Assembly: GCA_964583675.1 (NCBI GenBank)
Contig: CAZOVH010000001.1
Location: forward strand, 17,754-81,753
Direction: 5' to 3'
Length of the DNA stretch: 64,000 nucleotides
From: an uncultured Candidatus Saccharibacteria bacterium
GTDB lineage: Bacteria; Patescibacteriota; Saccharimonadia; CAILAD01; GCA-016700035
Shown: positions 8,719 to 28,833 of the stretch, in pieces
How positions within the stretch are numbered: the stretch's first letter is position 1
Layout of the letters: each line of letters begins with the position of its first letter
The notes under the pieces: model-generated
Database searches by the model: none
Told to the model about the DNA's origin: nothing
The model's input: the letters and a program-made list of their open reading frames with translations, nothing else
Made by a program: the position numbers and the translations under genes

Positions 8719-8760
8719 AAAAATAATTCTGATTCGACTATCAGTATACCACTTATGCTA

Positions 8761-9561: not shown

Positions 9562-9595
9562 TCCTCACATTATATGGCAAAGCATAACTAATAAC

Positions 9596-9620: not shown

Positions 9621-9638
9621 GCTGTTCAATTAATTGGA

Positions 9639-10049: not shown

Positions 10050-10076
10050 AAGACCTCCTTATAATATTCGCGCTCT

Positions 10077-10104
10077 AGTATAACGCTTATGCTTATGATA
10101 GCAA
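10077..10104 (-). promoter_or_regulatory. Candidate sigma70-type promoter for pilA
   Basis: Minus strand reads TTGCTA, a 16-nt spacer, then TATACT, about 20 nt upstream of RBS AAGGAGG (10054..10060) and ATG (10049). It sits in the 74-nt gap between pilC and pilA. Confidence 0.45.
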
Positions 10105-10122
10105 ATCCATGCTCAACGTCAA

Positions 10123-11367: not shown

Positions 11368-11382
11368 CTATTTATAGTTAAC

Positions 11383-12642
11383 CTAATGTCGCATTAAGCG
11401 ATCAAGCTCCTCAAGATTTACGGCGTAATTCTTAGCCTCTTCATAGCTAATCTTGCCTTCGTGGATATAGTGTGCAAGGGTAGCGTCCATCGACTGCATA
11501 CCATATTCGGCACCGGTCTGAATAACCGCGTCTAGCTGGTGGGTCTTGCCTTCACGAATAATGTTACGCACAGCCGGTGTGACCACCAAAATTTCCGCAA
11601 CCGCCATACGACCACCACCAATCATCGGGATAAGACGCTGGGCTACAATCCCCTGCAACACACTCGCAAGCTGAATGCGGATTTGCTGCTGCTGATGTGG
11701 AGGAAACACGTCTACCATACGGTCGATTGACTGCGCAGCTGAGTTGGTGTGCAATGTCGCAAACACCAAGTGACCAGTTTCTGCCACCGTAATAGCCGTA
11801 GAGATTGTTTCCAGGTCGCGCATCTCACCAATTAACACGACATCTGGGTCTTCACGCAAACTCGAGCGAAGTGCCGAGGCAAAGCTCTTGGTATCAAAGT
11901 GAACTTCGCGCTGTACCACAATCGATTTCTTGTGATGGTGCTGATATTCGATTGGATCTTCGATGGTAATAATGTGCATGGCGCGCTCACGGTTTACCTT
12001 ATCGAGCATTCCGGCAAGCGTTGTAGACTTACCCGAACCCGTTGGGCCAGTTACGAGTACGAGGCCGCGCGGAAATTCAGTAAGTTTGTTCATAATTGGC
12101 GGCAGGCCAAGATCTTCTACAGTGCGAATTTTATTAGGAATGAGACGAAATGCCGCTGCTGGATTCCCTTTTTCGTGGAAAGCATTAACGCGAAAACGAC
12201 CAAGATCACCGTAAGCAAAGGAGAAGTCGATTTCCTTATCTTTAAGGTAAACCTCTTTTTGTTCGTCATCCAAAAGGCTAAAGATAATGTCATCAATATC
12301 TTCGGCGGTTAGAACTTTTTCACCCTGAATTGGAGCTAATGCACCATCAACACGCAGCATTGGCGGCAAACCAACTTGTACGTGAATATCTGAAGCATCA
12401 CGACGGATAACTTCTTCCAGATACGGCTCGATTGAAAGCTTACCAGAGTGCGGCGTTTGTTCAACTTGATGTACTTGATCGGTGGCGCTCACCTCCGCCG
12501 CCGGAGCTGGTGCAGCAACAGGAGCCGGCACCTGGGCTGGTGGAATTTGCGCAGCCGGCGGCACGCTCGATACCACCCCACCCACACCATCTACTGGTAT
12601 GCCGCTAGGTTGAGCTGGAGTTGTTGGGTCGGTCGGCTGCAT
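11383..12642 (-). CDS. pilT: Twitching-motility retraction ATPase PilT with a Pro/Ala-rich N-terminal extension
   Basis: 419 aa. Walker A GPTGSGKSTT is present, with Asp and His boxes typical of PilT/PilU. The N-terminal ~65 aa are rich in P/A/V/Q and look like an unusual extension. Confidence 0.85.
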   Translation of the reverse strand: MQPTDPTTPAQPSGIPVDGVGGVVSSVPPAAQIPPAQVPAPVAAPAPAAEVSATDQVHQVEQTPHSGKLSIEPYLEEVIRRDASDIHVQVGLPPMLRVDGALAPIQGEKVLTAEDIDDIIFSLLDDEQKEVYLKDKEIDFSFAYGDLGRFRVNAFHEKGNPAAAFRLIPNKIRTVEDLGLPPIMNKLTEFPRGLVLVTGPTGSGKSTTLAGMLDKVNRERAMHIITIEDPIEYQHHHKKSIVVQREVHFDTKSFASALRSSLREDPDVVLIGEMRDLETISTAITVAETGHLVFATLHTNSAAQSIDRMVDVFPPHQQQQIRIQLASVLQGIVAQRLIPMIGGGRMAVAEILVVTPAVRNIIREGKTHQLDAVIQTGAEYGMQSMDATLAHYIHEGKISYEEAKNYAVNLEELDRLMRH

Positions 12643-12663
12643 GATAATTCCTTTACTTATTCG

Positions 12664-14457: not shown

Positions 14458-14474
14458 TTAATCAAGCGCTCCAC

Positions 14475-14726
14475 TTACAACGGATCTTCGCGACCACACG
14501 TTTCAGCAGTACACTGTTGAGGAGACGAATAGTCGTTATACCGCTCTAATTCTGTAAGCTTTTCCTGATCTTTTTGATCACTCAAAGGCACAGCAACTTT
14601 AGCGGGAACCTGAACATTAATACCCGTATCCTTAGGGGCTGGGGCAAGCTGTGTGTACAGCAGTACGCCCGTGATGGCAATGACTGCAACCGCAATTACA
14701 AGTCCGATAATATCTCTACGTTTCAT
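14475..14726 (-). CDS. Small single-pass membrane protein of the pilus operon (hypothetical)
   Basis: 83 aa. N-terminal TM helix (IIGLVIAVAVIAITGVLLY) is followed by a short soluble tail with two Cys. The start overlaps the pilO-like stop. Confidence 0.4.
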   Translation of the reverse strand: MKRRDIIGLVIAVAVIAITGVLLYTQLAPAPKDTGINVQVPAKVAVPLSDQKDQEKLTELERYNDYSSPQQCTAETCGREDPL

Positions 14727-15460
14727 TATTCGTACTTCCCTTTATCTGCTTCATACTCATCAATCTTCACCTCTTGAGCATTAATTGAAGGCTTAGGCAA
14801 AGCGTAAATCTTATACTGCATATCAAGAGTATACGTACCCTGGGAGCTGGTAATCTTCATTGTAGAAAAATCAAAGATACGAGCAGATGCCTCAAGCGCA
14901 GCGAGAAAACCAAGGACCGAATCTTGACTGCCAGTGGCCTTAACTGCAACCAAGCTGGACTTCGAACCAGTAGCAGGCGCTGTCGTACCGGCCGTTGTGC
15001 CCGCAGTAGCAGTGGCGCCAGCAGCTGTCGGCTTATTGATTGACTCAATGTCTACCTGATAATCGCTTTGTAGACGGTTGAAGATTGTAAGAATAGCCTC
15101 AAAGTCTTCGTCCTTAGGTAGCGTACGCTGAGTGATAAAATCAAACCTTGATGGACTATTACCCTCTGCCTGTTTCAGTTTCTGGATTTCCGGTTCGGCT
15201 TCCTCGAGCTTGGCTAATTTTACTTCGGAAAGCTTAACCTGGTATTCCTGAGCTCGCACTTCTAGCGCCTTACGAACATTTGCCTGAGCGAGTGTGTAGA
15301 TAAAGTATCCACCCACTAAAATAACTAGGACCGTAACGCCGATTGCGATGATAAGGTAATTTCGAATGCTCTGCATCGCAGCCTGTGTGCCTGGAGTCTC
15401 AGGCGGAGTCACCTTCTTTTTTGACGGTGGTTGTGGAGCGGCTTTTTTTGTCGGCGCCAT
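14726..15460 (-). CDS. PilO-like type IV pilus assembly protein
   Basis: 244 aa. Charged N-terminus, single TM (LIIAIGVTVLVILVGGYFIY), a coiled-coil segment, then a C-terminal globular domain. The stop/start overlaps pilN. Confidence 0.55.
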   Translation of the reverse strand: MAPTKKAAPQPPSKKKVTPPETPGTQAAMQSIRNYLIIAIGVTVLVILVGGYFIYTLAQANVRKALEVRAQEYQVKLSEVKLAKLEEAEPEIQKLKQAEGNSPSRFDFITQRTLPKDEDFEAILTIFNRLQSDYQVDIESINKPTAAGATATAGTTAGTTAPATGSKSSLVAVKATGSQDSVLGFLAALEASARIFDFSTMKITSSQGTYTLDMQYKIYALPKPSINAQEVKIDEYEADKGKYE

Positions 15461-16122
15461 TAGTTTGTCTCTCCACTTGTAGTAGATTCATTAGTAGTCT
15501 CTTTGTCTTCGCTCGACTTAGAATCCTCACGGAACTTCTTCACGAGCTTTTCATCTACCTTAAAAGTAACTTCAAAGTTAGCGTTATCGGTCTGCTTACG
15601 CTTTGTAACCGCCTGAACATCTACATCTGTAAATACCGGAACCCTATCAAAACCAGGAATGGGATTAAACTCAACATTGTAGGTTTTAAGCGCATTAATG
15701 AATAAAGCTACATTATTAAAATCTTTTGCCTCCACAGTAGCTTTCACTTTATAGTCCGGATCAACAGAGAGAGATGCTATACTAATGCCCTCAGGAGCAG
15801 CTTTAGCCAACTGACTAAAAAGCTGAGAAATAAGAATACGGTTATTTGAAAGTTTATCAGCTTCTGTAAGCGCAGCGTTAAACCAAGCAACATCTTGCTC
15901 GACATCCGCCTTACCAGCAATCTTCTGGTTCAACTCCTCAATGTTCCCCTTATTGGTTGCAAACTGAATATTACGGGCACCTAAGAGCAGTAAGAGAACC
16001 ACAAGAATAATACCTACACTACTACAGAGAACCAAACATACGACGGTAACTAAACGCTTAGTCTGCTGATTCTTCAGCTTTACCATGCGTGCTTCAGGAA
16101 GCAGGTTAATTCGAACCGACAT
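15460..16122 (-). CDS. pilN: Type IV pilus assembly protein PilN
   Basis: 220 aa. Begins MSVRINLLPEAR (PilN INLLP motif), then a TM helix and a periplasmic domain. Directly downstream of pilM. Confidence 0.7.
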   Translation of the reverse strand: MSVRINLLPEARMVKLKNQQTKRLVTVVCLVLCSSVGIILVVLLLLLGARNIQFATNKGNIEELNQKIAGKADVEQDVAWFNAALTEADKLSNNRILISQLFSQLAKAAPEGISIASLSVDPDYKVKATVEAKDFNNVALFINALKTYNVEFNPIPGFDRVPVFTDVDVQAVTKRKQTDNANFEVTFKVDEKLVKKFREDSKSSEDKETTNESTTSGETN

Positions 16123-16125
16123 CGC

Positions 16126-17163
16126 CTACACCATGTTCCTTAGCGCTAATCCAACTGCAGTCGAGTAGCCCAAAGCCATACCTGACAAACGATCGGTAAA
16201 CTCGGTTGCATAACTAATTTTCTGCCATGGATTTCCCATCTCAACCGGCAAGCCGAGTGCGTTCGCGAGATACACAGGCATTTCTGGGATGGATGCCGGA
16301 CCACCGGTAATAACAACTTTTTCCACTTTGCGTCCAGGATTGCTTTGGTAAAAGAATTCCATCGAGCGCTTAATTTCTTCTACGACATTATCAAGCAATG
16401 GCTTCATGGAGCGATATACTTGTCCTTCTAGCTTTGTCTGCGTGAGACCAAACTTACGCACAAATTGTTCAGCCTGGGCTTCGTCCAAACCAAGGTTTTG
16501 TGAGGTAACGCGAATCAGTGACTTGGCGCCAACATTCACCGAGCGGATTAAGCCTGGCACTCCGGCAGAGATCAAGCCCATATCAGTCGTAAGAGACGCA
16601 AATTCAACAACCACTACATCGATATCGGCATTTGGCACCATCGATCGAGACTGGGCAATGGCGTTAATGTCCAAAGCCATAAGCTCTAAGCCAGCTTGCT
16701 GGAAAATGTTGAGATATTTATTAGCTACGCTGGTCGGCGTCGCCACCAAGAGCACATCAATCTCTTCGGCTTCTTTATCTTGAGAAATACGGAAGAAATC
16801 TAGCTTTACCTGATCAATCGGCATTGGGATATATTTGTCGGCCTGGAAGCGAATGGTGTGTGCAATTTCGTTATCGGCCATTTGTGGCAATTTCAAAACA
16901 CTCGCAAAAACTTTACTGGCCGGCAAGCCAGCTACAACATTCTTAGTACTTACGCGCGCATCGGAAACGAGCTTTTTTAAGACCTCCGCAACTCGAGCCT
17001 GATCGGCTGGAGCGTCAGAACTCATCAAGCCAAACGGTAACTCAATATCACCGTACGTGACGAGCGTCGGCTTATCATGAATGAGTTTTAGCTCAACGAG
17101 TCGAATCCCAGAATTTCCTAGGTCGACCCCAAAATAATGTTCGTCTTCGATGAATAAGTCCAT
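16126..17163 (-). CDS. pilM: Type IV pilus assembly protein PilM (actin-like ATPase fold)
   Basis: 345 aa. N-terminal FGVDLGNSGIRLVEL is the actin/FtsA-like phosphate-1 motif. Length and position ahead of pilN fit PilM. Confidence 0.8.
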   Translation of the reverse strand: MDLFIEDEHYFGVDLGNSGIRLVELKLIHDKPTLVTYGDIELPFGLMSSDAPADQARVAEVLKKLVSDARVSTKNVVAGLPASKVFASVLKLPQMADNEIAHTIRFQADKYIPMPIDQVKLDFFRISQDKEAEEIDVLLVATPTSVANKYLNIFQQAGLELMALDINAIAQSRSMVPNADIDVVVVEFASLTTDMGLISAGVPGLIRSVNVGAKSLIRVTSQNLGLDEAQAEQFVRKFGLTQTKLEGQVYRSMKPLLDNVVEEIKRSMEFFYQSNPGRKVEKVVITGGPASIPEMPVYLANALGLPVEMGNPWQKISYATEFTDRLSGMALGYSTAVGLALRNMV

Positions 17164-17234
17164 GTGTTCCTATTTTAGCATAACTATTTTCAATTCGTAC
17201 TACCCTACCGCCCGGCTTTTAATTCTCTTATGGC

Positions 17235-20200
17235 TCAGAATTTTGGCCGTGCAGTATTGTTGTAGTACTTAGCGGTATTTGTTGAGGCAGTAATATCTTC
17301 AAACCCAGGTGGCGGCATAAAGCTCGACAAGCCATTACCAACGATATCTTCCGCTGGTCCACCCGTGTAGTAGTTCTGCGGCCAACCAGCCCGATTCTCA
17401 AGCCAGTAGTAGTTGGTTGCACCCCTGTTACCTGGTGAGTCAAAATCCTTACGCTCACCCGACAAATTACACACTCGGCGAATACCTAAAACATCTGAGA
17501 GGTTACAGAACTTACCAAATTCCTGGAAAGCACCCCCCTCATTTACTCGCCATCGTTCGACCATGCCAGCAAAGTCCACGTAGTTTCGTCCGAACGTAAA
17601 GCCTTCCCCGCCAGTAACACTGCCCGTTATTCGTAGCTTATTCGAGCAACCGCTGGCAGTTACATTATCGGCACTCGGTGCTTCATCAATGTTAGGGTCT
17701 TCAGTTTCGGTAGCCAAAGGATTGGAATCCAGACTTAGCGCGCCACCTCGACGGATCCACTTAGATCCTGTCGTGCCGGGCTTATCTGTCTTTGCAGCAT
17801 CTTCGTTTAGGCCACCTTCTGCGATATACAGATCGCAAGTAATCACCTTACCGGCCGCATACAAAGATGCATCAATGCGGTCAACGTTACTGGCAATAAC
17901 AATGTTCTTCGCGGAAATAATACCCAAGTTTGGAAGCTTGTTGAGTCCGGCCATATCTGGCACTCCTGTCTTCTGGAAGGTATATGGCAAACTATTATCG
18001 GTCGGATATCTGGCTTCAATGTTGCCGGTAATATAGACCGTGTCGTCTGAAACTATCGTAGATCTGCCGGCGTTGTAGATGAAGCCACCTAGCTCCATGT
18101 TTGGCTCAGTAATCGCACCACTTCCACTTGTCTGCAACTTAAAGATGGTTGGACAAGGCCTTGGAGCATTGGTGTTCACTAGGTAAAGTCCCCTATCGGC
18201 CTGTGGTCCAGCATTATGAGTACCAAACGGCAAGTTACTATTTGAGTCTGGCCTGTCGCGCAGTAACCACAGGAGACTTGGGGTGTCGATTGGCGAACCT
18301 GGAGCCCAAGAACGGTAATATTTGGCAGGTGGAGACAATTCTTGCGGACCATCATCTACATCTGGTGTGGTGCCGGTATCGCTACATTGACCGTACTCGC
18401 TGTACGCCCGATTGGCAGCTGCAACCATCTGACTATTTTTGAGTTCTTTCTGGCCGTCGCCGTTCGAATCTTCCGCTTGCTCAATATTGAGATTCACGCT
18501 ATCAAAACTACAATTGCGAGATTTTTGCGGTGCGTTAGCCTCGGCTTGGCCATATGGATCGGAGGGCTGTGGAGCGGTTCTCTGCCCCTTCGCAAATCCA
18601 AGCATGTAAAAGTTAGTCGAACAGAAGTTTGAGCCACCCTTCTCGGCAGCTGCAGTAAACTGAGCATGCAAGTTGATTGCTGGCTTTGCATCGGCAGGAG
18701 CAGGCGCACTCTCGAAAGATCCCTTATATGGACTACCATTGGTGCGGTTCTCAGCCTTATATACGCCCCTTGCCGATTCTGGTTGGTTTTCGATTTCTCC
18801 AAGTGCAGTCACATTTCCGTTCTGTACACGCAGCCACGGCTTATAGCTCACCTTAATTTCGAAGTCGCCTTGACAGGCCGAGCCAAATATCTGGGTAAAT
18901 CCACCCTGGCTAGCGGGCTTTGCTTGGCGCATCTGGAAGCCAAGCACAAATTTTGTGCCACCATCTTTTGGCGGTGTCGGTATAATCTTAAAGGTGTAAC
19001 TACTGGCACCCGGGTTAAGAGCAACTGGAGTTACCTCATTTCCACCCTCGATTTGCCGCTGGACATCCGGTATGTACCAAGCTCGAGTATCGTATTGATT
19101 ATTGGTTACCAAAGTACCACCAGTTACGACGAGCTCATGATATGTACCTGGAACGGCACCATTATTATTACCGTCTCGGTAGCCCTGCTGCCAGAAACTC
19201 TCACCAGTATTCTGCATAGTAACTTCAATTTCGTTGGATTGTGGGTAGTCGGCATCCATTACCGATATTGCATCCAACTGATTCTCAAATCCCTGTTGGT
19301 CGCATACCGCGTCATTCCTACATTGGTGCATCAGGCCTGGGCTAGAAACTCGGCGCGGTGAGTACTTCCAACTGCCTCCGGCGTTGCCGAAATCGCGAGC
19401 GCCAGATGAATATCCAGCAACCAAGTCTGAGTCTACAGCTCCCGAGCTACTATCGCTAAAGCGCGCAAACATCTCAAACTGACGATCATCACCATCTTTT
19501 AATAAAATCCCGCCCTGGCCGTTATACTTCGGTATATTTACATCCACCCGATATGCATCAGGCCCACTTGTTTGAGTAGTGATCTCCATAATATCGTTGC
19601 CGGTAGAAGTCTCTGTACGCATTAAGTTACTATTGCCGTTAATTCTAAAGTAAGTCGTAACTGGACGCGATGGGTCCGGCATATAAACCAAATTAGCGGT
19701 ATATGTGTCGCACGTAAGCGCCTCATTAGTGAGCTTGAATTTTGGCGCGTAGTAGAATGTTTGCTCTCTAAAGTTCGTCCCCACTGGAACACCCATTGAG
19801 TACGTATTTACTCCAGCTGCACCAGAATCTTTACGATAACCACATGGGCCGTTACCTTGCGCATTTATGCCGTATTGCCCAGTAGTAGTGTTCCACTGTG
19901 GAAAGTATGCCCATCCGCCGGTTGGTATAAAGGCGCACTCACGTGGAGTGTTGCCACCTATATTCCAGCTCTCGGGAGACCCACCGGCACTCCAGCTATC
20001 TGCTCCCGGAGCACCAGACCACATAATAGTACAGTAATTCTGGCCATTTGGATCCACCGCTGCATTAGGGTTATTCACACCAATAATTGGAGTATAAATC
20101 GTCCACCACAAGAACTGACTAACTGCAGTAAACTCCGCCTTGCGTCGATGATTTAAGAGACAGCCCGATATGTCGGCATTTGGTGCAACACTCGATGAAC

Positions 20201-22529
20201 AATCTGCCTGACCAACTGCGCAAGTGGATTGCGATATGTCGTAAGCTGATTCATTATTATATTCCGGACCATTATTGTGCCTGAAGCTATACTTACCCGG
20301 ATACACATTCCTTACAATCGCCAGGTTATTTTCCGAAGAATTACCATTTTGTGAAATTTGACCGGTCCTAGCATCAAGAGTATAGCCATATCTTAAAGGT
20401 CCCTGTCCGGAAAGGAACTGAGCTTGAGTAATGCGATTATTTCCACCCTCCGTGGTGCAATAAAATCCAGTATTCGCCGCACCGCCATAATCATAGCCAG
20501 GCTTGGTGGGGATATAGTCTTTACTAGCACAATTACCGTACCCGCCGGCAGGATCTCCGAGATCAGTTCCCGGTGTTACAGTATTCGCAACTCCAACGGT
20601 GTTCATCCTTACCGGTCGAACCTCCACGTCCGTACAAATGTTCCTCTTATAATCATTGTAGTTACATGGATTTAGATCGGTATTCGCAGACGTATTGCCT
20701 CCCTGCATGTCAATCTTACCGCGAACTTGAATTGTGACTGGCGCTGGCTTAAAGAAGAAGGTGACCCAAACTTGCCCACCGGTTGGAATCGCCACTCCGT
20801 TTATACTTGGTGTTGTGCCCTGGTAGTTAACCGTTACGGTATGCTCCGTCTGACCATTACCCTCAAGAATTATCTGACCCTGTGTTTGGTTATTTGGTGC
20901 TGCCGCAGCATCATTTGAGGCACAGCTTGATATCTGAGTGGCGGAGACACAATAGGCATAGCCACGTATCTGCCAGCCTGCTGGAGCTACTGCTCGAACA
21001 CCATAAGTTCCAGACGTGGAGTTGTAGTTTACGGCCCGATTCCAAGCGCCCGCCTGGTTATTGCCCGAAACAGTCTGACCAGCAACATCAATCGTTCCGG
21101 TGCCAAGGTTTGTCGTATCGCTATTTTGATTACTATTAAACGTGCCAGGCCCCTTTTTATCACCCTTCACGATTATTTGGTTTGGCTCGAGCACAAAGAA
21201 CACCGGGCGATACCGCCATGCCGTGAGTGTAGTCACAAACTGAGAAGTAGCACCTCCCTGTCCAGCAGATGTATAGCAAGTATTCCTATCGGTGTTCTGG
21301 CCACACTGTATTGTGCTAACAATTCTCCATCCTGCCGGAATATTCGCAGCAGAAACTGTATAGCCCGCCGCCGCAGGGCCTTTATCATCCGCATATAAGC
21401 CTGCTACATCGGCGCTACCATTTGATGATCTACCTGGCGTTACAGTGGTTGGCCCCGCAGTATAAGACTTCTGAGTGCCGGAAGGCAAATTAAATCGACG
21501 TGTTACCGTAATATCTGGGGCATTATCACACGCGCCAGCCTGATAATCAGACTGATTACAAGGGTTTGAGAGCGTGCCAGTTGCTGGATCTCGCACTAAA
21601 ATACCCGCCTGAATAGTCGAAGGCTTTGGCTCGTAATAGAAATCTAATGATTGCGTCGAACCTACTGGTGTCGTGCCTGCGGGGAAGCCGTAATAGTTCT
21701 GATTGCCAGAAGTACCATTCGACAATCGCCATCCGGTCGCCACCCAATCGGCTGTATCCACGGCCTGAATAATATGCGCTAATGCCTGATTTCTACCCGG
21801 CAAGCTGTATGGCTGGGTCACGCTTGTGTCCCCAATATTGTTGTCGCGAATCGTCGCACCGGAAGGCTGGCCACTCTGCAGGCCATAGCGATCTAACTTA
21901 ACCCCATTCACATTAAAACTAGGCGGATTTTCTTCATACACAAAGAAAACTTGTGTTTCACCGCCGTTATTTGCTTGAGCCGCGACTACGTTACTTGCCG
22001 CCCAGCTGCTTGCCCTCGTGACTGCTCCGCCGTCTATCCATTGCCAATATGCCACCCAATTACCACCATTGCTCGTAAACGTAGAGCCAGGCTTAGGGAT
22101 AGCAGATACTTGTACATGAAAATCTCCGGGCGCTAGACCATTAAGCGGTACACCGCACCAAGCAAAATTTGCAAAGCTAGTTACAAGCATAGTACTGCCA
22201 GGAGGAGCGAGGTATCCATTCCCCCAAGTTTGTGCAAAGCCCCAATCAGCCGGATATACATAAGTATTAGTTGTCGGATTACCTCCTCCCGGAGAAAGGT
22301 GATATCCATTATAGGGTGGTTGTGTAATTGGTACTTTTCCAGGAATCCCCATCGTATCTATCCGAATATCAACATCGCCTAGATTTTGCGTAACTCCTGT
22401 GTACCACGGCTTGAAGGCAACCCCTACGGTAATACGCGCTGGGTTGGCATGAGCGACGGTGGAAAGTGCGAAAAACACCGCTATGAATGTAGTTAACGAA
22501 ATTGATGCGCGTAAAAGTACTTTTCTCAT
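17235..22529 (-). CDS. Giant secreted surface protein (1764 aa), paralogous C-terminal module shared with 23648..27649
   Basis: Sec signal peptide (MRKVLLRASISLTTFIAVFFALSTVAHA|NPA). Composition is rich in G/N/T/Y/W. Internal ~300-aa repeats start with FYYxPKP..IQ and NPCN.xDY(Q/K)....C. The C-terminal region aligns with the 1333-aa ORF (PWLRVQNGNVTALGEI, FCSTNFYMLGF, LPNLGI, RIDASLYAAGKV, GFTFGRNYVDF, PPPGFE, terminal PKF). Confidence 0.8.
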   Translation of the reverse strand: MRKVLLRASISLTTFIAVFFALSTVAHANPARITVGVAFKPWYTGVTQNLGDVDIRIDTMGIPGKVPITQPPYNGYHLSPGGGNPTTNTYVYPADWGFAQTWGNGYLAPPGSTMLVTSFANFAWCGVPLNGLAPGDFHVQVSAIPKPGSTFTSNGGNWVAYWQWIDGGAVTRASSWAASNVVAAQANNGGETQVFFVYEENPPSFNVNGVKLDRYGLQSGQPSGATIRDNNIGDTSVTQPYSLPGRNQALAHIIQAVDTADWVATGWRLSNGTSGNQNYYGFPAGTTPVGSTQSLDFYYEPKPSTIQAGILVRDPATGTLSNPCNQSDYQAGACDNAPDITVTRRFNLPSGTQKSYTAGPTTVTPGRSSNGSADVAGLYADDKGPAAAGYTVSAANIPAGWRIVSTIQCGQNTDRNTCYTSAGQGGATSQFVTTLTAWRYRPVFFVLEPNQIIVKGDKKGPGTFNSNQNSDTTNLGTGTIDVAGQTVSGNNQAGAWNRAVNYNSTSGTYGVRAVAPAGWQIRGYAYCVSATQISSCASNDAAAAPNNQTQGQIILEGNGQTEHTVTVNYQGTTPSINGVAIPTGGQVWVTFFFKPAPVTIQVRGKIDMQGGNTSANTDLNPCNYNDYKRNICTDVEVRPVRMNTVGVANTVTPGTDLGDPAGGYGNCASKDYIPTKPGYDYGGAANTGFYCTTEGGNNRITQAQFLSGQGPLRYGYTLDARTGQISQNGNSSENNLAIVRNVYPGKYSFRHNNGPEYNNESAYDISQSTCAVGQADCSSSVAPNADISGCLLNHRRKAEFTAVSQFLWWTIYTPIIGVNNPNAAVDPNGQNYCTIMWSGAPGADSWSAGGSPESWNIGGNTPRECAFIPTGGWAYFPQWNTTTGQYGINAQGNGPCGYRKDSGAAGVNTYSMGVPVGTNFREQTFYYAPKFKLTNEALTCDTYTANLVYMPDPSRPVTTYFRINGNSNLMRTETSTGNDIMEITTQTSGPDAYRVDVNIPKYNGQGGILLKDGDDRQFEMFARFSDSSSGAVDSDLVAGYSSGARDFGNAGGSWKYSPRRVSSPGLMHQCRNDAVCDQQGFENQLDAISVMDADYPQSNEIEVTMQNTGESFWQQGYRDGNNNGAVPGTYHELVVTGGTLVTNNQYDTRAWYIPDVQRQIEGGNEVTPVALNPGASSYTFKIIPTPPKDGGTKFVLGFQMRQAKPASQGGFTQIFGSACQGDFEIKVSYKPWLRVQNGNVTALGEIENQPESARGVYKAENRTNGSPYKGSFESAPAPADAKPAINLHAQFTAAAEKGGSNFCSTNFYMLGFAKGQRTAPQPSDPYGQAEANAPQKSRNCSFDSVNLNIEQAEDSNGDGQKELKNSQMVAAANRAYSEYGQCSDTGTTPDVDDGPQELSPPAKYYRSWAPGSPIDTPSLLWLLRDRPDSNSNLPFGTHNAGPQADRGLYLVNTNAPRPCPTIFKLQTSGSGAITEPNMELGGFIYNAGRSTIVSDDTVYITGNIEARYPTDNSLPYTFQKTGVPDMAGLNKLPNLGIISAKNIVIASNVDRIDASLYAAGKVITCDLYIAEGGLNEDAAKTDKPGTTGSKWIRRGGALSLDSNPLATETEDPNIDEAPSADNVTASGCSNKLRITGSVTGGEGFTFGRNYVDFAGMVERWRVNEGGAFQEFGKFCNLSDVLGIRRVCNLSGERKDFDSPGNRGATNYYWLENRAGWPQNYYTGGPAEDIVGNGLSSFMPPPGFEDITASTNTAKYYNNTARPKF

Positions 22530-23569
22530 ATGCCTTTAGCCTTATACTCTGCATACTTCTTCTCATATTCGCGCAAAACAGCTTCACCTTTGATGAATTT
22601 ATCCACCAGAACAAAATAATGAGCAGCTTCAACAGGTGTTTTTGAAGAATCATGAACAGAAATGTAGTTTCTCGTCTTGATTTCTGAGTAACCAACTTTA
22701 CCAAAGTCATATATAACCTTAAGTATTGTGCTAGTAGTATCGTCCAAAATAACAGATGCCGCCAAAGAGGGCGTTATCAAACTAGAACCATTCGGGTCTT
22801 CATAGGGACTAAGCATCCGATCGGACTGCAATCGTGCCACTACTTGAGCCGGCTGTACAGCATGAGCCTTGAGATCGGCCATATCTTTTTGCGCCTGCTC
22901 CAAAGCTTTGGTCCTATCAGCCTCGTATGCCTGCCGATTACCCCTATTTGGTATAACATAACTGGATGGCCAGGCGATTAGAGAATTGCCATACCAATAA
23001 TAAAATACGTAGGCCTCAAAATAGCCATTTTCCTGGACAAGTTTAAGCTTCCCATCTATGAGCTGACTAATTGCCTTCTCCGCTTTTTCTGGGGTAGCAT
23101 TTGCACCAGCTACAAAATTTAAGGTGTTTTTATCTGCCAGCACATCTACTGAAGGGGCGACACCTACTGCTTGCGCGGCTAAATACTTAGCTCCCACACG
23201 ACTTGCGAGATCGCGTTTTTGTTCATCATTCATATCTTTTGTAAGACTAAGGGCATCAAGCTTTTCTATTATCTGTTTCTGCTGATCATTTCGGTACTGA
23301 TCACGTTCAGTAGCCACAAATTGTCTATACCCAATAAACGTAGCGCCAAAAATAAATACCACTAGCGACACAACCAACACCCAAAAGATGGCCCGCCTCT
23401 TTTGTTTGGCCTGCGCTTCTTTTCTTGCTTCTACTGTTGCTTGTGCTTTCTCAAGAACTCGCGTGGCATCAACACCGCGCGGCACAGGAGACGTAGACTC
23501 AGCAGCTGCTGAGTCATTTTTCCGCTGAGAAAGTGGATCTAATGACTTTGGACTCATATATACAAACAA
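22526..23569 (-). CDS. Membrane-anchored hypothetical protein encoded between the two giant genes
   Basis: 347 aa. Charged N-terminus, a TM at about aa 60-82 (AIFWVLVVSLVVFIFGATFIGY), and a large extracytoplasmic domain. Its stop overlaps the giant-protein start by 4 nt (ATGA). Confidence 0.55.
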   Translation of the reverse strand: MFVYMSPKSLDPLSQRKNDSAAAESTSPVPRGVDATRVLEKAQATVEARKEAQAKQKRRAIFWVLVVSLVVFIFGATFIGYRQFVATERDQYRNDQQKQIIEKLDALSLTKDMNDEQKRDLASRVGAKYLAAQAVGVAPSVDVLADKNTLNFVAGANATPEKAEKAISQLIDGKLKLVQENGYFEAYVFYYWYGNSLIAWPSSYVIPNRGNRQAYEADRTKALEQAQKDMADLKAHAVQPAQVVARLQSDRMLSPYEDPNGSSLITPSLAASVILDDTTSTILKVIYDFGKVGYSEIKTRNYISVHDSSKTPVEAAHYFVLVDKFIKGEAVLREYEKKYAEYKAKGI

Positions 23570-23647
23570 TCAACTCGTTTTAAAACGCTTATGTCTATCG
23601 TACCTGAGCCCCCAGGACTCTTCAAGGTATAAGCTGGAGAATATTTT

Positions 23648-26600
23648 CTAGAAACGTGGATCGGCGTTGTCTGTGACGTAGCGAGCCTGTGAAAAGTCAG
23701 GTTTCGTGAGATGCTCAAAGCCAGGAGGTGGAGCGATAAGCATGAGGCCATTAAAGATCACGTCTTCGGCTGGCTTACCATAATACAAACTGCGTCGTGG
23801 ATCGTAGTCAAAATCCGCACTAAACTGAGCTCGGCCTGTTCGGGCCTGGATCGCCGAAAAGTCGACAAAGTTTCTACCAAACATAAATCCGCCTTTTGAA
23901 GCCATCACACCACGCACCGAAAGCTGATTCTTACATCGAGCTGCCTGGGAGTTTTGCTGCACATTACTACCCGATAGCGTTTCACTCTTAAATCCGTTTG
24001 AGGTCAATGGGTTGTCATTACCGGTTGCGCCCGGACTGTATAGCTCTTCACAGGTGCGAATCTTACCACTCGCATACAAAGATGCATCAATTCTCGTAAC
24101 ATCTTTATCGATGATAATATCACCCTTAACCAGGATACCCAGGTTCGGTAATGCGTTGAGGCCAACCAAATCGTCACGATTAAAGGTCGCGTCCTTTGGC
24201 GTGTTTACGACATTAGCATTGAGATAGAGATTTCCGTCAACAATGATGGTCATACGTCCAGTCGGCTGGAAAAGAGCTGGCGTAGAAACAGGGCTAGGAT
24301 TCACGGTAGTTCCGAGTGTAAGATAGCCAGCTCGAGGCACCGTCAGCTTAGTTATTTCTGGACACGCACTCGACATTGCCGGTAAATTCTGACCATTGTA
24401 GTTCCTATCTAGACCTTTCTTATAGCGGGCTGACCCACTCGTTGCAGGACCGGCAGCTGGACAGTCATCAGGAGCCTCATCCCAGGCATCTTCCGCATCT
24501 CTATAGACTACTTCTTCAGTAGGATTCAAGGCACTAAGCGCATCAGCAAGACCAGACCGGAGATTAAATTTATACTGATCAAAGTCACACCCATCTGGGT
24601 AGAATGAAGTGCCATCAGCTTGATCTCTTCCTAAGACATAAGCATTCGTACTACAGAACGGACCGTTACCTGCAACATGCGACATTACAAGATATGTTAC
24701 TTCTAGATTTAGATCATCGCGCTGCCCATCAACCGGAGGAGCAGGCTCTGCATTCGCGTCTCTGCGGCCGCCCAAATTCCCACCAGTAGCACTGAGTGCT
24801 TCTTGACCCTGAATTTTACCTATAGCACTCACATTTCCGTTTTGCGTACGCAACCATGGACCATATGATGAAAGCACCCTAATGGAAGTTCCACAGGTAC
24901 CGCCAAATGCGATTGGTGCGCTTCCGTCGCTCGGTACAAACTCCATAGTAAATACCAAAGGCGTCGAAGCATCAGACGGAGCTTTAATAAGCGTTAGTGT
25001 AGGAGCAAACTCCAAGCTATCCACATTGCCACTCGCAGCCGGAGCTGGGTAAATGTTTCCAGAAACTGCGCTTGAGGTAATCTCCCAGAACTCACGTGAT
25101 TCCGCTGTCAGCCCCAGACGATACGAACCGCTCGGATAAGTTGCCCATATCGCTTGCCCATTATTCTGCATGCCAACCTTTATATTACCCTCGCTATCAC
25201 CCGTGCTCAGTGTTGCGCGGCCATTCGGGAAAATTGTTGCAAGGTTATTACTGACACACTGAGCATTCCTCGGACACACCAAAGTTCCGGTACCGTTGGT
25301 GCCAACCCCGATATCCACACCATCAACAATCAAGCGAATTTGTACCGCGCGCGCCACCCCATCCTTGTATTTTTCAGGAACTGTGAAGTTAAAATTACGT
25401 CCTTGCTTGATGACTTCTCCTGAACTATCGGTTAAATCTTCACCCCCGACACGTGCGTACACTTCGATATCCGCTGCGCCACCGCCCGATATACTTCCAG
25501 AAATCGTAGGACAGATTACATTTAAGCTCACTACCGTTGGTCTTCTACGGAAAATCCAATCAACATCAAGAGTTGCGCCATTACCAACCGAACCACCCAC
25601 GTACGTGTAAGTTGCAGAACGCACAATTGGCCCGTTATTCACTCGATAACCATACACATCGTATCCAGCTTCAGCATCTACAGTGAAGGAATGCCCCTGG
25701 TCTGCGCGCAAGTTTGCAAATGAATATGGTTGCGCGCTACTAGTAAGTCCATTTGGCTGCTCTCGGACTGTATTGTCTCGATAAGCCCCTGTAGTGGCTC
25801 CATCTTCTTCTTGCTTTTCACCCGATACAGTCATCAGTGGTGGGTCAACCTGCGGTGGAGGTGATTTCTTCATCTTTACATTAATCGAGTAGCCCAAAGA
25901 ACCATTGGCGATGCCCTGATAGAGATCTGACGGAATACGATAATGATCGTCATAGGCAGAGGCCCTATCCTGCACTATCCACTGATTCGTAAGAAGCGTA
26001 ACGGTAAATTGACTGGCGTCTCGGTAGTTCACTGGCTGATAGCCAACGACAGTGTTAAAGCGGAATTCCCAACCCGTATAACAGCTCAACGCAAAGACCC
26101 ACGGATTGTTCTGATGATCGTACACATCCCAGCTCGCTCTGCCGCCCCAGTAACCAAAGTTCAATACTCCATATGCACCAACTATCGGAGCTGGCTCATC
26201 GTTACAGGCTGCTTGCACATTGCCCGTACTGAGAATCTGCATTGTAGCCACTGCGGCACCCTTGTCGTCTCGCATTTGTTTAAGCGGGATGAGCTGGCCC
26301 GTGTCATAATCTGTATAGATGATACTCATCGGCAACGTGTGGTTCGTAAAACAATTAACCGCTGCTGCTCGGGCTGAAGGAATAAGAGCCTGTCGAGCGG
26401 AATCGATGAGACCCGTTGCACCGCCGCTGGCTGGGTTATTGATATCTAAATTGTTTTGCTGATCATCAACCTCGGGGAGCGAGTAATATTCGTTGCTATA
26501 CTTAGCCGATTCCAGGTACTGCTGGATGAGCTGGTCAAGAGACTCCGTATCACCCTGCACTCTATTCGTCGCACGGAAGATGGCATAATACCCCACCTTA

Positions 26601-27649
26601 GATTTAAAGACCTTAGTATTCTCACCAACTGCCAGGCGTGAAATATAATCTATATCCCGTTCACCTTCTGGGTATTGTTGGAAAGTTGCATACATTGTCT
26701 CGTTCAGGCGAGGATACTCCGCTGTTCTGACCCATGGCGCTCCGGGGGTTTCCATCTTTTTATCAAATTCTGCATCACTGCTGTACGGGCTAATATCGGC
26801 AGCTCGGTAGATCTCTTCTTTACTTGCACCGCGCTCAAACAGGGGCAAGAAATCTCGTTCCAAGCGAGCCTTAGCCTCTTTCTCATATGTTTCCTTTTCT
26901 TGAGTACTAGCATCAGCCCCAAACTGGTCCCAGCGAATATATACACCAAATGTATCGGTTCCGCTCGTTGCGGTATCAGCAAGAACTTCACGGTAATATT
27001 CCGTACAGACCTTCATAAATGTAACACTTGAATCCCAGCCATACTCTTGCTTTAAGTAGGCGTAAAATGCATCTTTACCGCCCTGTGACTGGTATTGAGG
27101 AGACATGCGCGTATCAACAATCTCCTGAGTGCAGGTAATATTTTTCTTAGCTGCTTCAGCCTTCAATGCCAGATAAGTTAGTAGGTCGCGAGATGCAGTA
27201 GCGGCAATCAAGTTAGCATCTTCTGGAGACGACTGCTTATTATTAAATCCTTGATACGAAGCCTTTACTTTATCAAACTCGTCCAAGCTTGCCGTCTGAT
27301 CACCTACTTCTGCAAAATTGCCAGCGCTTGGCCTTGGCTTACCGATTGAATCGAGCAGTCGGGTACCCTGTAAAAGCCAGATTACCGAAAGACTCGTAAT
27401 GACGAACAAGCCGATAAGGCCAGCAAAAATAGCTACTTTCTTTTTATTTACTGGCTTCTTCGGCTGCTGTGGTTTACCAACACTAGACTCAATCTTCTTT
27501 GGTGGTTCGTAGTTTTTTGGCTTAATCGCTTCACCAGCCTGAGTCGGCGCGCCTTTTGGACGCACAACCTCACCCGCCTTGTGTTCAGCGACTGGCTTCA
27601 CCTGTTTTTTATCTGGCCGAGGGCCAATGCTATCGATCGATTTTGGCAT
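23648..27649 (-). CDS. Giant surface protein (1333 aa) with signal-anchor, paralogous C-terminal module shared with 17235..22529
   Basis: The K/P-rich cytoplasmic N-terminus (~70 aa) is followed by a single TM (VAIFAGLIGLFVITSLSVIWLL). The large extracytoplasmic region is rich in G/T/N/S. The C-terminal ~420 aa are homologous to the 1764-aa protein (PWLRTQNGNVSAIGKI, FCSTNAYVLG, LPNLGI, RIDASLYASGKI, GFMFGRNFVDF, PPPGFE, terminal PRF). Confidence 0.8.
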   Translation of the reverse strand: MPKSIDSIGPRPDKKQVKPVAEHKAGEVVRPKGAPTQAGEAIKPKNYEPPKKIESSVGKPQQPKKPVNKKKVAIFAGLIGLFVITSLSVIWLLQGTRLLDSIGKPRPSAGNFAEVGDQTASLDEFDKVKASYQGFNNKQSSPEDANLIAATASRDLLTYLALKAEAAKKNITCTQEIVDTRMSPQYQSQGGKDAFYAYLKQEYGWDSSVTFMKVCTEYYREVLADTATSGTDTFGVYIRWDQFGADASTQEKETYEKEAKARLERDFLPLFERGASKEEIYRAADISPYSSDAEFDKKMETPGAPWVRTAEYPRLNETMYATFQQYPEGERDIDYISRLAVGENTKVFKSKVGYYAIFRATNRVQGDTESLDQLIQQYLESAKYSNEYYSLPEVDDQQNNLDINNPASGGATGLIDSARQALIPSARAAAVNCFTNHTLPMSIIYTDYDTGQLIPLKQMRDDKGAAVATMQILSTGNVQAACNDEPAPIVGAYGVLNFGYWGGRASWDVYDHQNNPWVFALSCYTGWEFRFNTVVGYQPVNYRDASQFTVTLLTNQWIVQDRASAYDDHYRIPSDLYQGIANGSLGYSINVKMKKSPPPQVDPPLMTVSGEKQEEDGATTGAYRDNTVREQPNGLTSSAQPYSFANLRADQGHSFTVDAEAGYDVYGYRVNNGPIVRSATYTYVGGSVGNGATLDVDWIFRRRPTVVSLNVICPTISGSISGGGAADIEVYARVGGEDLTDSSGEVIKQGRNFNFTVPEKYKDGVARAVQIRLIVDGVDIGVGTNGTGTLVCPRNAQCVSNNLATIFPNGRATLSTGDSEGNIKVGMQNNGQAIWATYPSGSYRLGLTAESREFWEITSSAVSGNIYPAPAASGNVDSLEFAPTLTLIKAPSDASTPLVFTMEFVPSDGSAPIAFGGTCGTSIRVLSSYGPWLRTQNGNVSAIGKIQGQEALSATGGNLGGRRDANAEPAPPVDGQRDDLNLEVTYLVMSHVAGNGPFCSTNAYVLGRDQADGTSFYPDGCDFDQYKFNLRSGLADALSALNPTEEVVYRDAEDAWDEAPDDCPAAGPATSGSARYKKGLDRNYNGQNLPAMSSACPEITKLTVPRAGYLTLGTTVNPSPVSTPALFQPTGRMTIIVDGNLYLNANVVNTPKDATFNRDDLVGLNALPNLGILVKGDIIIDKDVTRIDASLYASGKIRTCEELYSPGATGNDNPLTSNGFKSETLSGSNVQQNSQAARCKNQLSVRGVMASKGGFMFGRNFVDFSAIQARTGRAQFSADFDYDPRRSLYYGKPAEDVIFNGLMLIAPPPGFEHLTKPDFSQARYVTDNADPRF

Positions 27650-27753: not shown

Positions 27754-28833
27754 ATGAGTCTTTCTCTCGGCATCGTCGGCCTACCGAACGTTGGTAAGTC
27801 GACACTTTTTAACGCACTCACCAAGTCTGACATCTTGGCGGCTAACTACCCATTTGCTACTATCGAGCCGAATGTCGGCATTGTGCCGCTCCCAGACAAG
27901 CGCCTCGCTGAACTAGCGCGCGTAGCTAACACTGCAAAGATTATCCCAGCACCGGTTACCTTTACTGACATCGCCGGTATTGTAAAAGGCGCCGCCGAAG
28001 GCGCTGGCCTTGGTAATAAATTCCTCGCCCATATTCGCGAATGTGCTGCCATTGTGCAGGTTGTAAGGGCTTTTGAATCTGGCGACATTATTCATGTTGA
28101 TGACACTATTAATCCAGCACGCGATATAGAAACAATTAAAACTGAGCTGATCCTGGCTGATCTCGCCACCATCGACAAAGTACTACCCCGCCTAGAGAAA
28201 GAGGCCAAAACTTCTGCCGATGCACGAACTGCAGTTGCAGACCTTACCAAAGCTCGTACTGCACTCGATGCAGGCACCCTCGCTATAAGCCTCTACTCCG
28301 AGGAAGTTCCGCAAAGTATTCGTGAGCTACAGCTCCTTACCGCCAAGCCGTTTATCTATGTTTTTAACGTAGATGAAGCCGGCCTAGCCGATAAAGACCT
28401 CCATGAAAAACTTCGCTCCAGCGTCGCCTCGCTCCCCGCCCTCGTATTGTGCGCCGAGCTGGAAGCCCAACTCAAAGATATGTCAGATGGCGAAGCTTCA
28501 GAGCTACTCGCCGAATACGGGCAAGTAGAATCTGGACTAGCATCACTGGCTCACCTTGGTTTTTCCACCCTTGGCCTGCAAACCTATTTCACCGCCGGAG
28601 AAAAAGAGGCTCGTGCTTGGGTAATTCCGCAGGGAGCAACCGCGCCCGAAGCTGCAGGTGTAATTCATACCGATTTTGAAAAAGGCTTTATTAAGGCAGA
28701 GATTGTAAGCAGTGAAGACTTTATAGAATGCGGCGGCTGGACTGGGGCTCGCACCGCTGGCAAAGTTCGACTCGAAGGCCGTGATTACATCATGCAAGAC
28801 GGCGATGTTGTGCTGTTTAAGTTCAATGTGTAG
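27754..28833 (+). CDS. ychF: Ribosome-binding ATPase YchF (Obg-family GTPase)
   Basis: 359 aa. G1 motif GIVGLPNVGKSTLFNALT is present. A TGS-like C-terminus ends DGDVVLFKFNV. Confidence 0.9.
   Translation: MSLSLGIVGLPNVGKSTLFNALTKSDILAANYPFATIEPNVGIVPLPDKRLAELARVANTAKIIPAPVTFTDIAGIVKGAAEGAGLGNKFLAHIRECAAIVQVVRAFESGDIIHVDDTINPARDIETIKTELILADLATIDKVLPRLEKEAKTSADARTAVADLTKARTALDAGTLAISLYSEEVPQSIRELQLLTAKPFIYVFNVDEAGLADKDLHEKLRSSVASLPALVLCAELEAQLKDMSDGEASELLAEYGQVESGLASLAHLGFSTLGLQTYFTAGEKEARAWVIPQGATAPEAAGVIHTDFEKGFIKAEIVSSEDFIECGGWTGARTAGKVRLEGRDYIMQDGDVVLFKFNV

Follow-up and report, generated by a model that had tools for sequence, protein, structure and literature searches.

The genome in question has an interval between ychF and pilM, at the head of a type IV pilus (T4P) gene cluster, that is occupied by very large genes, and the question raised by this locus is what these genes encode and how their products relate to the pilus. 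The window, the whole 64-kb stretch of DNA that was analyzed, derives from a member of the Saccharibacteria, as an earlier note on this DNA had considered, and the interval is filled by three minus-strand genes, here called B (1333 aa), mid (343–347 aa) and A (1764 aa). That note had described three minus-strand ORFs directly upstream of pilM, and their coordinates were found to be exactly as it gave them (Table 1). The spacer between B and mid is 78–90 nt, mid and A overlap by 4 nt (ATGA), and A is separated from pilM by 71 nt. Downstream of A, Pfam matches give the gene order pilM, pilN, a pilO-like gene, an 83-aa ORF, pilB, pilT, pilC, the major pilin gene, pilD and another four pilin-like genes (312, 204, 218 and 455 aa); the 218- and 455-aa products weakly resemble GspJ and GspK, respectively. 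Scans of the window for Rfam families and tRNAs gave no matches.

Table 1. Positions of the three genes, their C-terminal modules and the neighboring pilus locus within the window.
Feature	Position	Strand	Basis or remark
T4P locus (context)	5110..17163	-	Pfam
A-pilM intergenic gap	17164..17234	-	conserved extended -10 element within
Gene A, 1764 aa, passenger-only form	17235..22529	-	ORF list, BLASTP
A C-terminal beta-solenoid module (predicted), residues 1229-1764	17238..18845	-	YKPWLR to terminal RPKF; HMM match 5.5e-138
mid, bitopic anchor, 343 aa from ATG 23557 (probable start)	22526..23557	-	ORF list gives TTG 23569 (22526..23569)
Gene B, 1333 aa, fused anchor and passenger	23648..27649	-	ORF list, BLASTP, family homology
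B C-terminal beta-solenoid module (predicted), residues 929-1333	23651..24865	-	YGPWLR to terminal DPRF

The two giant proteins were said to align over their C-terminal regions, and BLASTP confirms this over 590–760 residues (A1007-1764 against B744-1333, 26% identity, E = 3e-37), with all of the previously named motifs present. Their N-terminal parts, thought to be unrelated, are not wholly so, as a second HSP joins A201-311 with B602-712 (E = 6e-8). The shared module proper starts at Y-x-P-W-L-R and spans 536 aa in A and 405 aa in B, the difference being due to loop insertions. No further copies of it were found in the window beyond A and B, and neither protein has internal repeats at the BLAST level. 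Word-indexed homologue searches gave one match each (P0001 and P0002), and it was an exhaustive profile search of 1.84 billion proteins that revealed the family: 199 cluster representatives carry the module, which forms the protein C-terminus in nearly all of them. About half of the 151 listed family proteins (76) end exactly in PRF, most end in PRF or a PKF, PRY or PRL variant, and in a few the motif is followed by up to ~78 residues.

The module had been described as unrecognised, which stands with respect to named sequence families but not with respect to its fold, which is recognizable from a structure model. Pfam searches with 18 module sequences gave nothing, including DUF3494 (PF11999), even at E ≤ 5, sequence and profile searches of the PDB with the module gave nothing even at E ≤ 10, and neither A nor B matched a Pfam family at E ≤ 0.01 or anything in NCBIfam. 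In the public databases checked, the family is named solely 'hypothetical protein'. Several explanations for such a C-terminus were discarded. A sortase- or exosortase-type sorting signal does not fit, since the motif lies at the very end of most of the 151 listed proteins with no TM helix or hydrophobic stretch after it; an outer-membrane beta-signal was rejected from the sequence, which has no alternating hydrophobic pattern; and a polymorphic toxin was rejected because no immunity-like gene accompanies A or B. The invariant residues include no conserved acidic/His/Lys set, which argues weakly against an enzyme.

At its other end, B begins with the conserved sequence MPKSIDSIGPRP, and its first 72 residues form a K/P-rich tail (16 K and 12 P), read as cytoplasmic, that leads into a hydrophobic TM helix (residues 72–95; TM helices were called by eye and hydropathy only, and the signal peptide of A by eye). 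There follow a SurA/PpiD-like domain (~100–385), a beta-rich middle, an FW/NBR1-like Ig domain (~795–925) and the predicted beta-solenoid (929–1333), in which six family-conserved cysteines lie at 999, 1021, 1063, 1096, 1200 and 1239. Residues 72–383 align at 1e-20 to P0038, which matches Pfam SurA_N_2/SurA_N_3, and the N-terminal 60–600 residues are homologous to family members with SurA_N_3/SurA_N_2 matches. PF13624 (SurA_N_3) is matched by 24 of the 33 B-type members, B itself falling below Pfam significance, and Rotamase_2 (PPIC/parvulin) by two of the 33 (E ~0.005). PDB profile matches of the anchor region are to the SurA-like proteins LIC12922 (3NRK) and HP0175 (6BHF).

The small protein between the giants had been noted as a 347-aa membrane protein. 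It does have a single TM helix (at about residues 59–80, numbered from TTG 23569), but its length is probably 343 aa, as homologues all begin MSPKS(L/I)DP and the true start is therefore probably the ATG at 23557. Its tail reads MSPKSLDPLS, an extracytoplasmic domain follows the TM helix, and orthologues are present in loci L003, L005, L006 and L021. Between mid and B, BLASTP found nothing significant, and Pfam searches with ten anchor proteins returned noise only; a weak profile match to the N-terminal region of B (hhalign 74%, E 2.7e-5) is suggestive. B, mid and their relatives have a conserved N-terminal tip, M-x-K/R-x-I/L-D-S/P, and in P0003, P0011, P0013 and P0017 a mid-type tail and an A-type passenger are joined in a single protein. 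Read from the sequences, mid is the split-off counterpart of the N-terminal anchor of B and no bystander. Gene A encodes the passenger only: a Sec signal peptide (residues 1–28, ending AHA-NPA), a conserved N-terminal domain beginning NPARITVGVAFKPW, a beta-rich and Cys-rich middle, and an Ig-like domain (~1085–1225) before the module.

By the same comparisons, B and the mid-A pair represent two copies of a single surface protein built from two parts, found here solely in Saccharibacteria loci. The first part would be a bitopic anchor, in which a single TM helix links a short, conserved N-terminal stretch in the cytoplasm to an extracytoplasmic domain of the SurA/PpiD/PrsA-like chaperone type, and the second a long, beta-rich, Sec-exported passenger ending in the Ig domain and a disulfide-braced solenoid with a free P-(R/K)-F end. 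The parts are fused in B and, for A, encoded as overlapping neighbors (mid then A). The combination of TM anchor and SurA_N-like domain is likewise seen in PpiD/PrsA/SurA chaperones, but these are free housekeeping foldases, whereas here the chaperone-like domain is fused to or paired with one specific giant passenger. A separate, ordinary SurA_N plus parvulin protein (SEML1_0121) is present in S. epibionticum.

Structure searches with the module, as the earlier note had proposed, matched ComZ and IBP-1/DUF3494 solenoids by fold, with no sequence match. The predicted fold is an FW/NBR1-like Ig domain followed by a triangular right-handed beta-solenoid of the IBP-1 (DUF3494)/ComZ type, and the six conserved module cysteines fit an extracytoplasmic location. 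With DUF3494 proteins (e.g. 3WP9, 6BG8, 5UYT) the module shares the predicted solenoid core, without a Pfam match; it is about twice their length and has the six conserved cysteines, and to our knowledge the motifs PWLRxQNG, FCSxN, FGRN, PAE and PPPG...PRF are not features of DUF3494. Ice binding by the module seems unlikely. Beta-solenoids include the DNA-binding ComZ, the ice-binding DUF3494 proteins and many enzymes, so the fold does not identify the function.

Compared with genome L005, PilB, PilT and PilM are 99.5–99.8% identical while PilA and a minor pilin are at 50%; the module shows 50–58% identity, the rest of B 82%, the middle of A ~88%, mid 35% and the A N-terminus ~30%. Between related genomes, the module is one of the regions that change most quickly, at ~50–58% identity against 82–90% elsewhere in the same proteins, and from these values it evolves like other exposed pilus parts, in step with the pilins. 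Recombination was rejected as the source of this mosaic, since nucleotide identity to L005 is just 78–87% even in the conserved parts and differing evolutionary rates suffice; it is likely only behind the swap between fused and split forms, which occurs even in the nearest relative (P0003).

Divergence at the pace of PilA and a minor pilin would also suit a non-pilin protein of the pilus tip. The solenoid and its free PRF end would then dock on the minor-pilin priming complex (the downstream GspK/GspJ-like pilins) and ride on the pilus tip, as PilY1 does via its C-terminal domain and ComZ via its solenoid, while the variable remainder of the protein recognises the host. PilY1 is the tip adhesin of Gram-negative type IVa pili, and PilY1/PilC proteins resemble A in being large non-pilins with a Sec signal, a variable N-terminus and a family-conserved C-terminus, encoded with pilus genes. 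Conservation of the C-terminal tripeptide points to a partner that is itself conserved, and in the monomer model pLDDT is low for the last residues of the module. In PilY1, however, the conserved domain is a beta-propeller (Pfam Neisseria_PilC), whereas the module is a predicted solenoid with no Pfam match, and PilY1 genes lie within the minor-pilin operon, whereas A and B are upstream of pilM. ComZ, the tip pilin of the Thermus thermophilus competence pilus (PDB 6QVI), shares the predicted solenoid type but carries it inserted in a GspK-like pilin fold, while that of A and B is C-terminal, after the Ig domain, and ends PRF. No sequence similarity to PilY1 or ComZ was found in A or B, which have no pilin domain, and Pfam detected no prepilin leader or N_methyl motif in either, whereas the true pilins of the locus match N_methyl; A has instead the AHA-N Sec site and B the 72-residue tail before its TM helix. 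The structural scores of DUF3494 proteins are almost equal to those of ComZ, so the match may reflect fold alone. The B-type, widespread and apparently ancestral, is membrane-anchored at its N-terminus with no obvious release site, and could not travel on a pilus. We regard a tip location as unlikely, and consider equally doubtful its more specific form, in which the PRF-terminated solenoid would be a new tip or docking module, neither pilin nor propeller, that is chaperoned by its own membrane-anchored SurA-like partner, handed to the minor pilins and acts as a hypervariable host-range determinant.

The co-occurrence of the module with T4P loci was borne out: in every family locus checked (~14 distinct Saccharibacteria loci, with module identities reaching down to ≤30%), a module gene is the next gene upstream of pilM and is co-oriented with it; a membrane anchor with a SurA/PpiD-like domain is either part of the same protein or encoded just before it. 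Passengers with their own signal peptide mostly have a bitopic protein encoded just upstream, usually overlapping. Copy number per locus varies from 1 to 3, and middle domains are freely replaced. All of the loci share one block, rpsF-ssb-rpsR-efp-ychF-...-pilM, so the repeated adjacency to pilM is not independent evidence, and the proteins could serve the cell surface in general, or be S-layer-like, and be functionally unconnected with the pilus, having simply kept an inherited position in a chromosome block of high synteny. P0002, a partial and distant relative located away from any pilus gene, would agree with this, as would the independent promoter of pilM. Co-transcription of the giants with pilM, as earlier supposed, is not needed: an extended -10 element, TTATGCTAAAAT, lies at 17172-17183, ending 8 nt before the pilM ATG, and is kept in all loci examined. 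From its sequence and conservation pilM has its own, deeply conserved promoter, and an mRNA from this predicted promoter is leaderless or near-leaderless; co-regulation of A and B with pilM is accordingly not shown. Against a pilus-independent role, the co-orientation and a short gap of 45–100 nt between module gene and pilM are retained despite gene fission, fusion and duplication and an almost complete turnover of sequence, the 71-nt gap between A and pilM showed no terminator-like hairpin, and no wall-anchoring SLH, LysM or LPXTG domains were found in A/B family proteins. The closest analogues are also pilus-linked, ComZ by fold and tapirins also by gene position. Tapirins (Caldicellulosiruptor) are likewise encoded beside a T4P locus in a monoderm, but have no sequence relation to A and B, appear to differ in the subtype of their solenoid, differ in their N-terminal parts, have neither the SurA-like anchor nor the PRF terminus, and have a known ligand, cellulose. 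A purely inherited position seems improbable to us.

Alternatively, the fact that these genes immediately precede pilM in each locus examined could mean that their products are parts of the monoderm T4P-1 machine with a structural role in the envelope, or dedicated pilin chaperones. The cytoplasmic N-terminal peptide, conserved at its extreme end, would contact PilM or another cytoplasmic component, and the extracytoplasmic part, with its SurA/PpiD-like domain, would steer or support the pilus on its way through the wall, replacing PilP/PilQ/TsaP-type parts; no secretin or other wall-spanning part was seen in the T4P locus by Pfam. But PilN already has the canonical PilM-binding peptide (INLLP) at its N-terminus, the evolutionary rate of the module is far above that of PilN, PilO or PilC, and the variable copy number and middle domains are unusual for a core machine part. 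Family genes are also absent from the ychF-pilM interval of the cultured S. epibionticum ML1, in which T4P genes are essential, so its pilus locus does without them there and they are accessory rather than core pilus parts. A core envelope function is quite improbable.

The best reading is a pilus-associated or attachment role: we take the A/B family to be accessory adhesins of the T4P-1 pilus system, and candidate host-attachment factors, with a probability of roughly 45%. It is doubtful that divergent heads sit on a conserved base, since the anchor is N-terminal (fused in B, supplied by mid for A) and the module is fast-evolving; with the membrane anchor at the N-terminus, the module is probably the distal end of the protein. 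The anchor would hold the passenger at the membrane and probably aid its folding, the fast-evolving solenoid would face outward, and, after the pilus draws the cells together, it would bind a ligand of the host bacterium, for which a cell-wall glycan is the most plausible candidate. Surface adhesins of short range, acting after contact by the pilus, are required in a published Saccharibacteria model (PMC11623550). The conservation of the terminal PRF across a very divergent family is unexplained by a simple adhesin model, and suggests docking to a conserved partner.

The mechanism by which ultrasmall epibiotic bacteria recognise and hold their hosts is largely unknown, and the factors so far implicated in Saccharibacteria are type IV pili, lectin-like minor pilins and a small number of unrelated adhesins. 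The present family is mentioned in none of the papers found by our literature search, which its absence at this site in at least one cultured oral model strain, S. epibionticum ML1, may explain. Its design, a chaperone-type anchor fused to or paired with its passenger, is unusual, and the conserved, leaderless-type pilM promoter predicted beside it would be useful for genetic work in Saccharibacteria. Were the docking of the solenoid at the pilus tip true, the solenoid would decide which host bacterium an environmental Saccharibacterium attaches to, and gene loss in mammal-associated lineages would mark a changed attachment strategy. As a large family, beside T4P-1 genes in every locus examined and evolving as fast as pilins, these proteins provide testable candidate host-range determinants in environmental Saccharibacteria.

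The earlier note had described two giant genes, B and A, separated by the small gene mid and lying on the minus strand directly before pilM; this arrangement was confirmed by the ORFs, and the C-terminal similarity of the two proteins by alignment (A residues 1007-1764 with B 744-1333, E=3e-37), and all of the motifs listed there were found. Their N-terminal parts had been taken to be unrelated, but a second short similarity (A 201-311 with B 602-712, E=6e-8) means that they are not wholly so. B and mid are 78-90 nt apart, mid and A overlap by 4 nt, and 71 nt separate A from pilM. A and B carry the only two copies in the window of the module, the beta-solenoid region at their C-termini (A 1229-1764, B 929-1333). 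The anchor proteins, so called for their N-terminal membrane part, begin with MPKSIDSIGPRP in B and MSPKSLDPLS in mid; the signal peptide of A was identified by eye.

Downstream of pilM are pilN, a pilO-like gene, an 83-aa ORF, pilB, pilT, pilC, a pilin gene, pilD and further pilins (the locus specifies pilins of 136, 312, 204, 218 and 455 aa), and no secretin was seen among these pilus genes. The 83-aa ORF is kept in every locus examined (75-92 aa), and its counterpart in S. epibionticum, SEML1_0107, was scored as essential and carries no annotation. The genes for the 218-aa and 455-aa proteins follow the N_methyl pilins and show weak NCBIfam matches (GspJ-like and GspK-like); their products are likely to be tip-forming minor pilins, and natural candidate partners of the module. 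Just past the pilin genes is the gene for a protein of 642 aa, in which a Wzy_C (O-antigen ligase-like) domain is combined with TPR repeats. Since Wzy_C is also found in pilin O-oligosaccharyltransferases (PglL/TfpO type), pilin glycosylation is a conceivable role. The interval between the Wzy_C gene and the last pilin-like gene holds, in the opposite orientation, a gene for a tyrosine recombinase (Phage_integrase and SAM-like N-terminal domains), perhaps XerC/D or else the integrase of a mobile element. The remaining genes of the window are those of an ordinary chromosome (recA, ftsK, polA, dnaG, rpoD and others).

Coordinates of the genes and sequence elements discussed (window positions unless a relative's locus is named)
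Feature	Position	Strand	Description
ychF	27754..28833	+	divergent from B
ychF promoter layout	~27733-27753	+	TGATATAAT + 6 nt + ATG
B	23648..27649	-	1333 aa; 72-residue K/P-rich tail, then one hydrophobic helix
mid	22526..23569 (23557 from the ATG used by homologues)	-	347-aa ORF as listed from 23569; basic tail and one helix
A	17235..22529	-	1764 aa; Sec-type signal peptide, end AHA|NPA
pilM extended -10 region	17164-17190	-	also in L001, L003, L005, L006, L007, L009, L014, L015, L016, L018, L020, L021
pilM	16126..17163	-	downstream of A, co-oriented
83-aa ORF	14475-14726	-	between pilO and pilB
Second upstream motif	~10080-10105, ~8745-8765, ~23590-23612	-	plus gap 27650-27753
218-aa and 455-aa genes	5110-7165	-	after N_methyl pilins
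Tyrosine recombinase	4163-5074	+	
642-aa protein	2154-4082	-	Wzy_C and TPR
P0003	L004 11627-13600; L001 1-4458		2120 aa, nearest relative MAG
B orthologue	L005 4706-8871		two-piece match

Searches with A, B and the isolated module gave no sequence match in Pfam, NCBIfam or the PDB. When 1.84 billion cluster representatives were searched with a profile of the module, 199 proteins passed E<=1e-3, of which 101 had E<=1e-10 and 27 had E<=1e-30. Their annotation in the source databases is 'hypothetical protein' only, and no description or name of the family was found in the databases and papers searched. The same genes occur in MAGs labelled Candidatus Saccharibacteria or Patescibacteria (one genome per species scanned), with module identities to the window from 97% down to 49-51%. 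The module is C-terminal in nearly all of the 199 proteins, and its core runs from Y-x-P-W-L-(R/Q)-x-Q-N-G through the final residue. It spans ~320 aa in the compact members and is longer in B (405 aa) and A (536 aa). Six cysteines are kept across 83 members, and the exact ending PRF is present in 76 of the 151 family proteins listed, most others ending in PKF, PRY or PRL plus one residue.

A first structure model of the module (18 sequences) was mediocre (pLDDT 62), and a second (83 sequences; B residues 925-1333) reached pLDDT 76.7 and pTM 0.83; the fold matches of the second were independently repeated by the first, in which the domain preceding the solenoid was matched to the FW/NBR1 Ig fold. 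Foldseek on the module was weak and pointed in the same direction, the best match being a DUF3494 domain (E 0.018). As modelled, the region is an FW-like Ig domain followed by an IBP-1/ComZ-type triangular beta-solenoid, a statement of fold and not of family membership. The module had been called unrecognised, which holds for sequence families but not for its fold; the structure search of the isolated module that had been proposed gave IBP-1/ComZ-type matches. The resemblance to the DUF3494 solenoid is not accompanied by a match to the sequence profile that defines that family, nor do A and B have the defining pilin domain of ComZ. The solenoid of ComZ has itself been described as IBP-like, and ComZ is argued to occupy the pilus tip and bind the adjacent pilin (PMC6561018). 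Docking of the module at the tip, in the manner of PilY1 or ComZ, would be in keeping with this fold match and with the conserved PRF terminus, but we regard such docking as rather unlikely.

At the other end of B, residues ~60-600 are kept in many family members, including distant ones. Among 33 proteins with a B-type N-terminus, Pfam matches were found to SurA_N_3 (24/33), SurA_N_2 (17/33) and PPIC rotamase (2/33), and a profile of these regions matches the SurA-like PDB entries 3NRK and 6BHF. B-type proteins are therefore predicted to start with a membrane-anchored chaperone-type domain, comparable to PpiD and PrsA. Module proteins with their own signal peptide, such as A, mostly have as upstream neighbor a bitopic protein (97-350 aa), whose gene usually overlaps theirs by 4 nt. 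The protein encoded by mid belongs to this set, and shows a weak match to the B N-terminal region (hhalign 74%, E 2.7e-5). In several genomes the mid tail (MSPKSLDP...) is the N-terminus of one long protein (2100-2200 aa; P0003, P0011, P0013 and P0017), where it is followed by a B-like SurA region and an A-type passenger, the long exported remainder. We conclude that B and mid plus A are fused and split versions of one anchor-and-passenger design. In the nearest relative MAG, the fused N-terminus of P0003 (mid-like tail and B-like SurA region) stands in place of mid and the first ~175 residues of A; the passenger that follows it shares 88-96% identity with A. This looks like a recent swap between the two forms. 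The B orthologue of another relative, L005, gives two separate matches (B 1-1113 and B 1099-1333), the called ORF being only the 175-aa C-terminal part. The gene may be frameshifted or a pseudogene, or the assembly may be at fault.

Amino-acid identities between the window and L005 differ widely from gene to gene: 99.5-99.8% for PilM, PilB and PilT, 99% for SSB, 94% for YchF, 87% for PilC, 85% for PilN, 77% for PilD, 76% for PilO, and 50% for PilA and one minor pilin. B is 82% identical over residues 1-1113 and 58% over its module, and A ~88% over residues 301-1100, ~50% over its module and ~30% over residues 1-300, with mid at 35%. As nucleotide identity is 78-87% in alignable parts, these figures reflect differing evolutionary rates and not necessarily recombination. 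The module thus diverges between relatives as fast as the pilins; what keeps it recognizable family-wide is an invariant framework of Cys, Gly and a few motifs. Since the anchor is N-terminal and the fast-evolving module C-terminal, the proposed arrangement of variable heads on a conserved base is probably the wrong way round, at least in B-type proteins. The two fastest segments, mid and the A N-terminal domain, are neighbors and are replaced together by the fusion, which would fit an interacting pair.

Co-transcription of the giant genes with pilM had also been proposed. No terminator-like hairpin was found between A and pilM, but every locus examined has an extended -10 sequence, TTATGnTA(A/T)(A/T)AT, stopping 6-11 nt short of the pilM ATG; the remainder of the gap cannot be aligned between distant loci. 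The 64-kb window contains the pattern only three times, against a chance expectation of 0.6. Among the fetched loci, 12 have it at the pilM site, and 8 of these contain no other match. Such conservation implies that pilM has its own predicted promoter and a probably leaderless or near-leaderless mRNA; its transcription need not depend on read-through from A, although such read-through is possible. The same layout is seen at ychF and pilD. A second motif, CATAAG(C/T)G(T/G)T with a TATACT-like -10 after it, lies upstream of two pilin genes, that of the major pilin and that of the 312-aa protein. A weaker form of the motif stands upstream of mid, and AAGCGTT recurs before ssb and between the divergent genes ychF and B. 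The motif may be a promoter or regulator site common to these genes, and would then divide the region into several transcription units.

The position of the module genes, co-oriented and directly upstream of pilM, held up well: in every core-family locus with visible downstream DNA, pilM comes 45-100 nt after the last module gene, on the same strand (the window, L001-L003, L005-L007, L009, L010, L013-L016, L018, L020 and L021; ~14 distinct loci), at module identities to the window reaching 30% or less. All share one inherited block, rpsF-ssb-rpsR-efp-ychF-...-pilM, so these adjacencies are not independent events; that the position is merely inherited, with no functional link to the pilus, we nevertheless hold to be unlikely. 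P0002, a distant partial relative, has no pilus gene nearby. In the cultured oral strain S. epibionticum ML1, ychF (SEML1_0103) abuts pilM (SEML1_0104) with nothing between, their divergent start codons only ~11 nt apart (Table S1, PMC10633639), so that site lacks the anchor/passenger region entirely. The sole SurA_N protein of ML1 is the free PpiC-type protein SEML1_0121 (345 aa), which is encoded a few genes past the pilus locus. The T4P-1 locus of TM7x has been described as 13 genes, every one a machine part or pilin. A structural role for A and B in the pilus machine is improbable, given their absence from the ychF-pilM site of S. epibionticum, whose T4P genes are essential, the varying number of module genes per locus (one, two or three) and the fast evolution of the proteins.

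Overall, the earlier interpretation is supported in part. In the favored reading A and B are proposed adhesins, which the SurA-like anchor would tether and perhaps also fold; the part turned toward the host surface would be their Ig-plus-solenoid tip. The combination of anchor and passenger is an unusual design. Beta-helical surface proteins whose genes accompany those of type IV pili are, as a general kind, already known; the tapirins, encoded beside the Caldicellulosiruptor pilus locus, are similar in this respect. Short-range adhesins have been postulated for Saccharibacteria (PMC11623550), and the reading of A and B as adhesins would fit that proposal.
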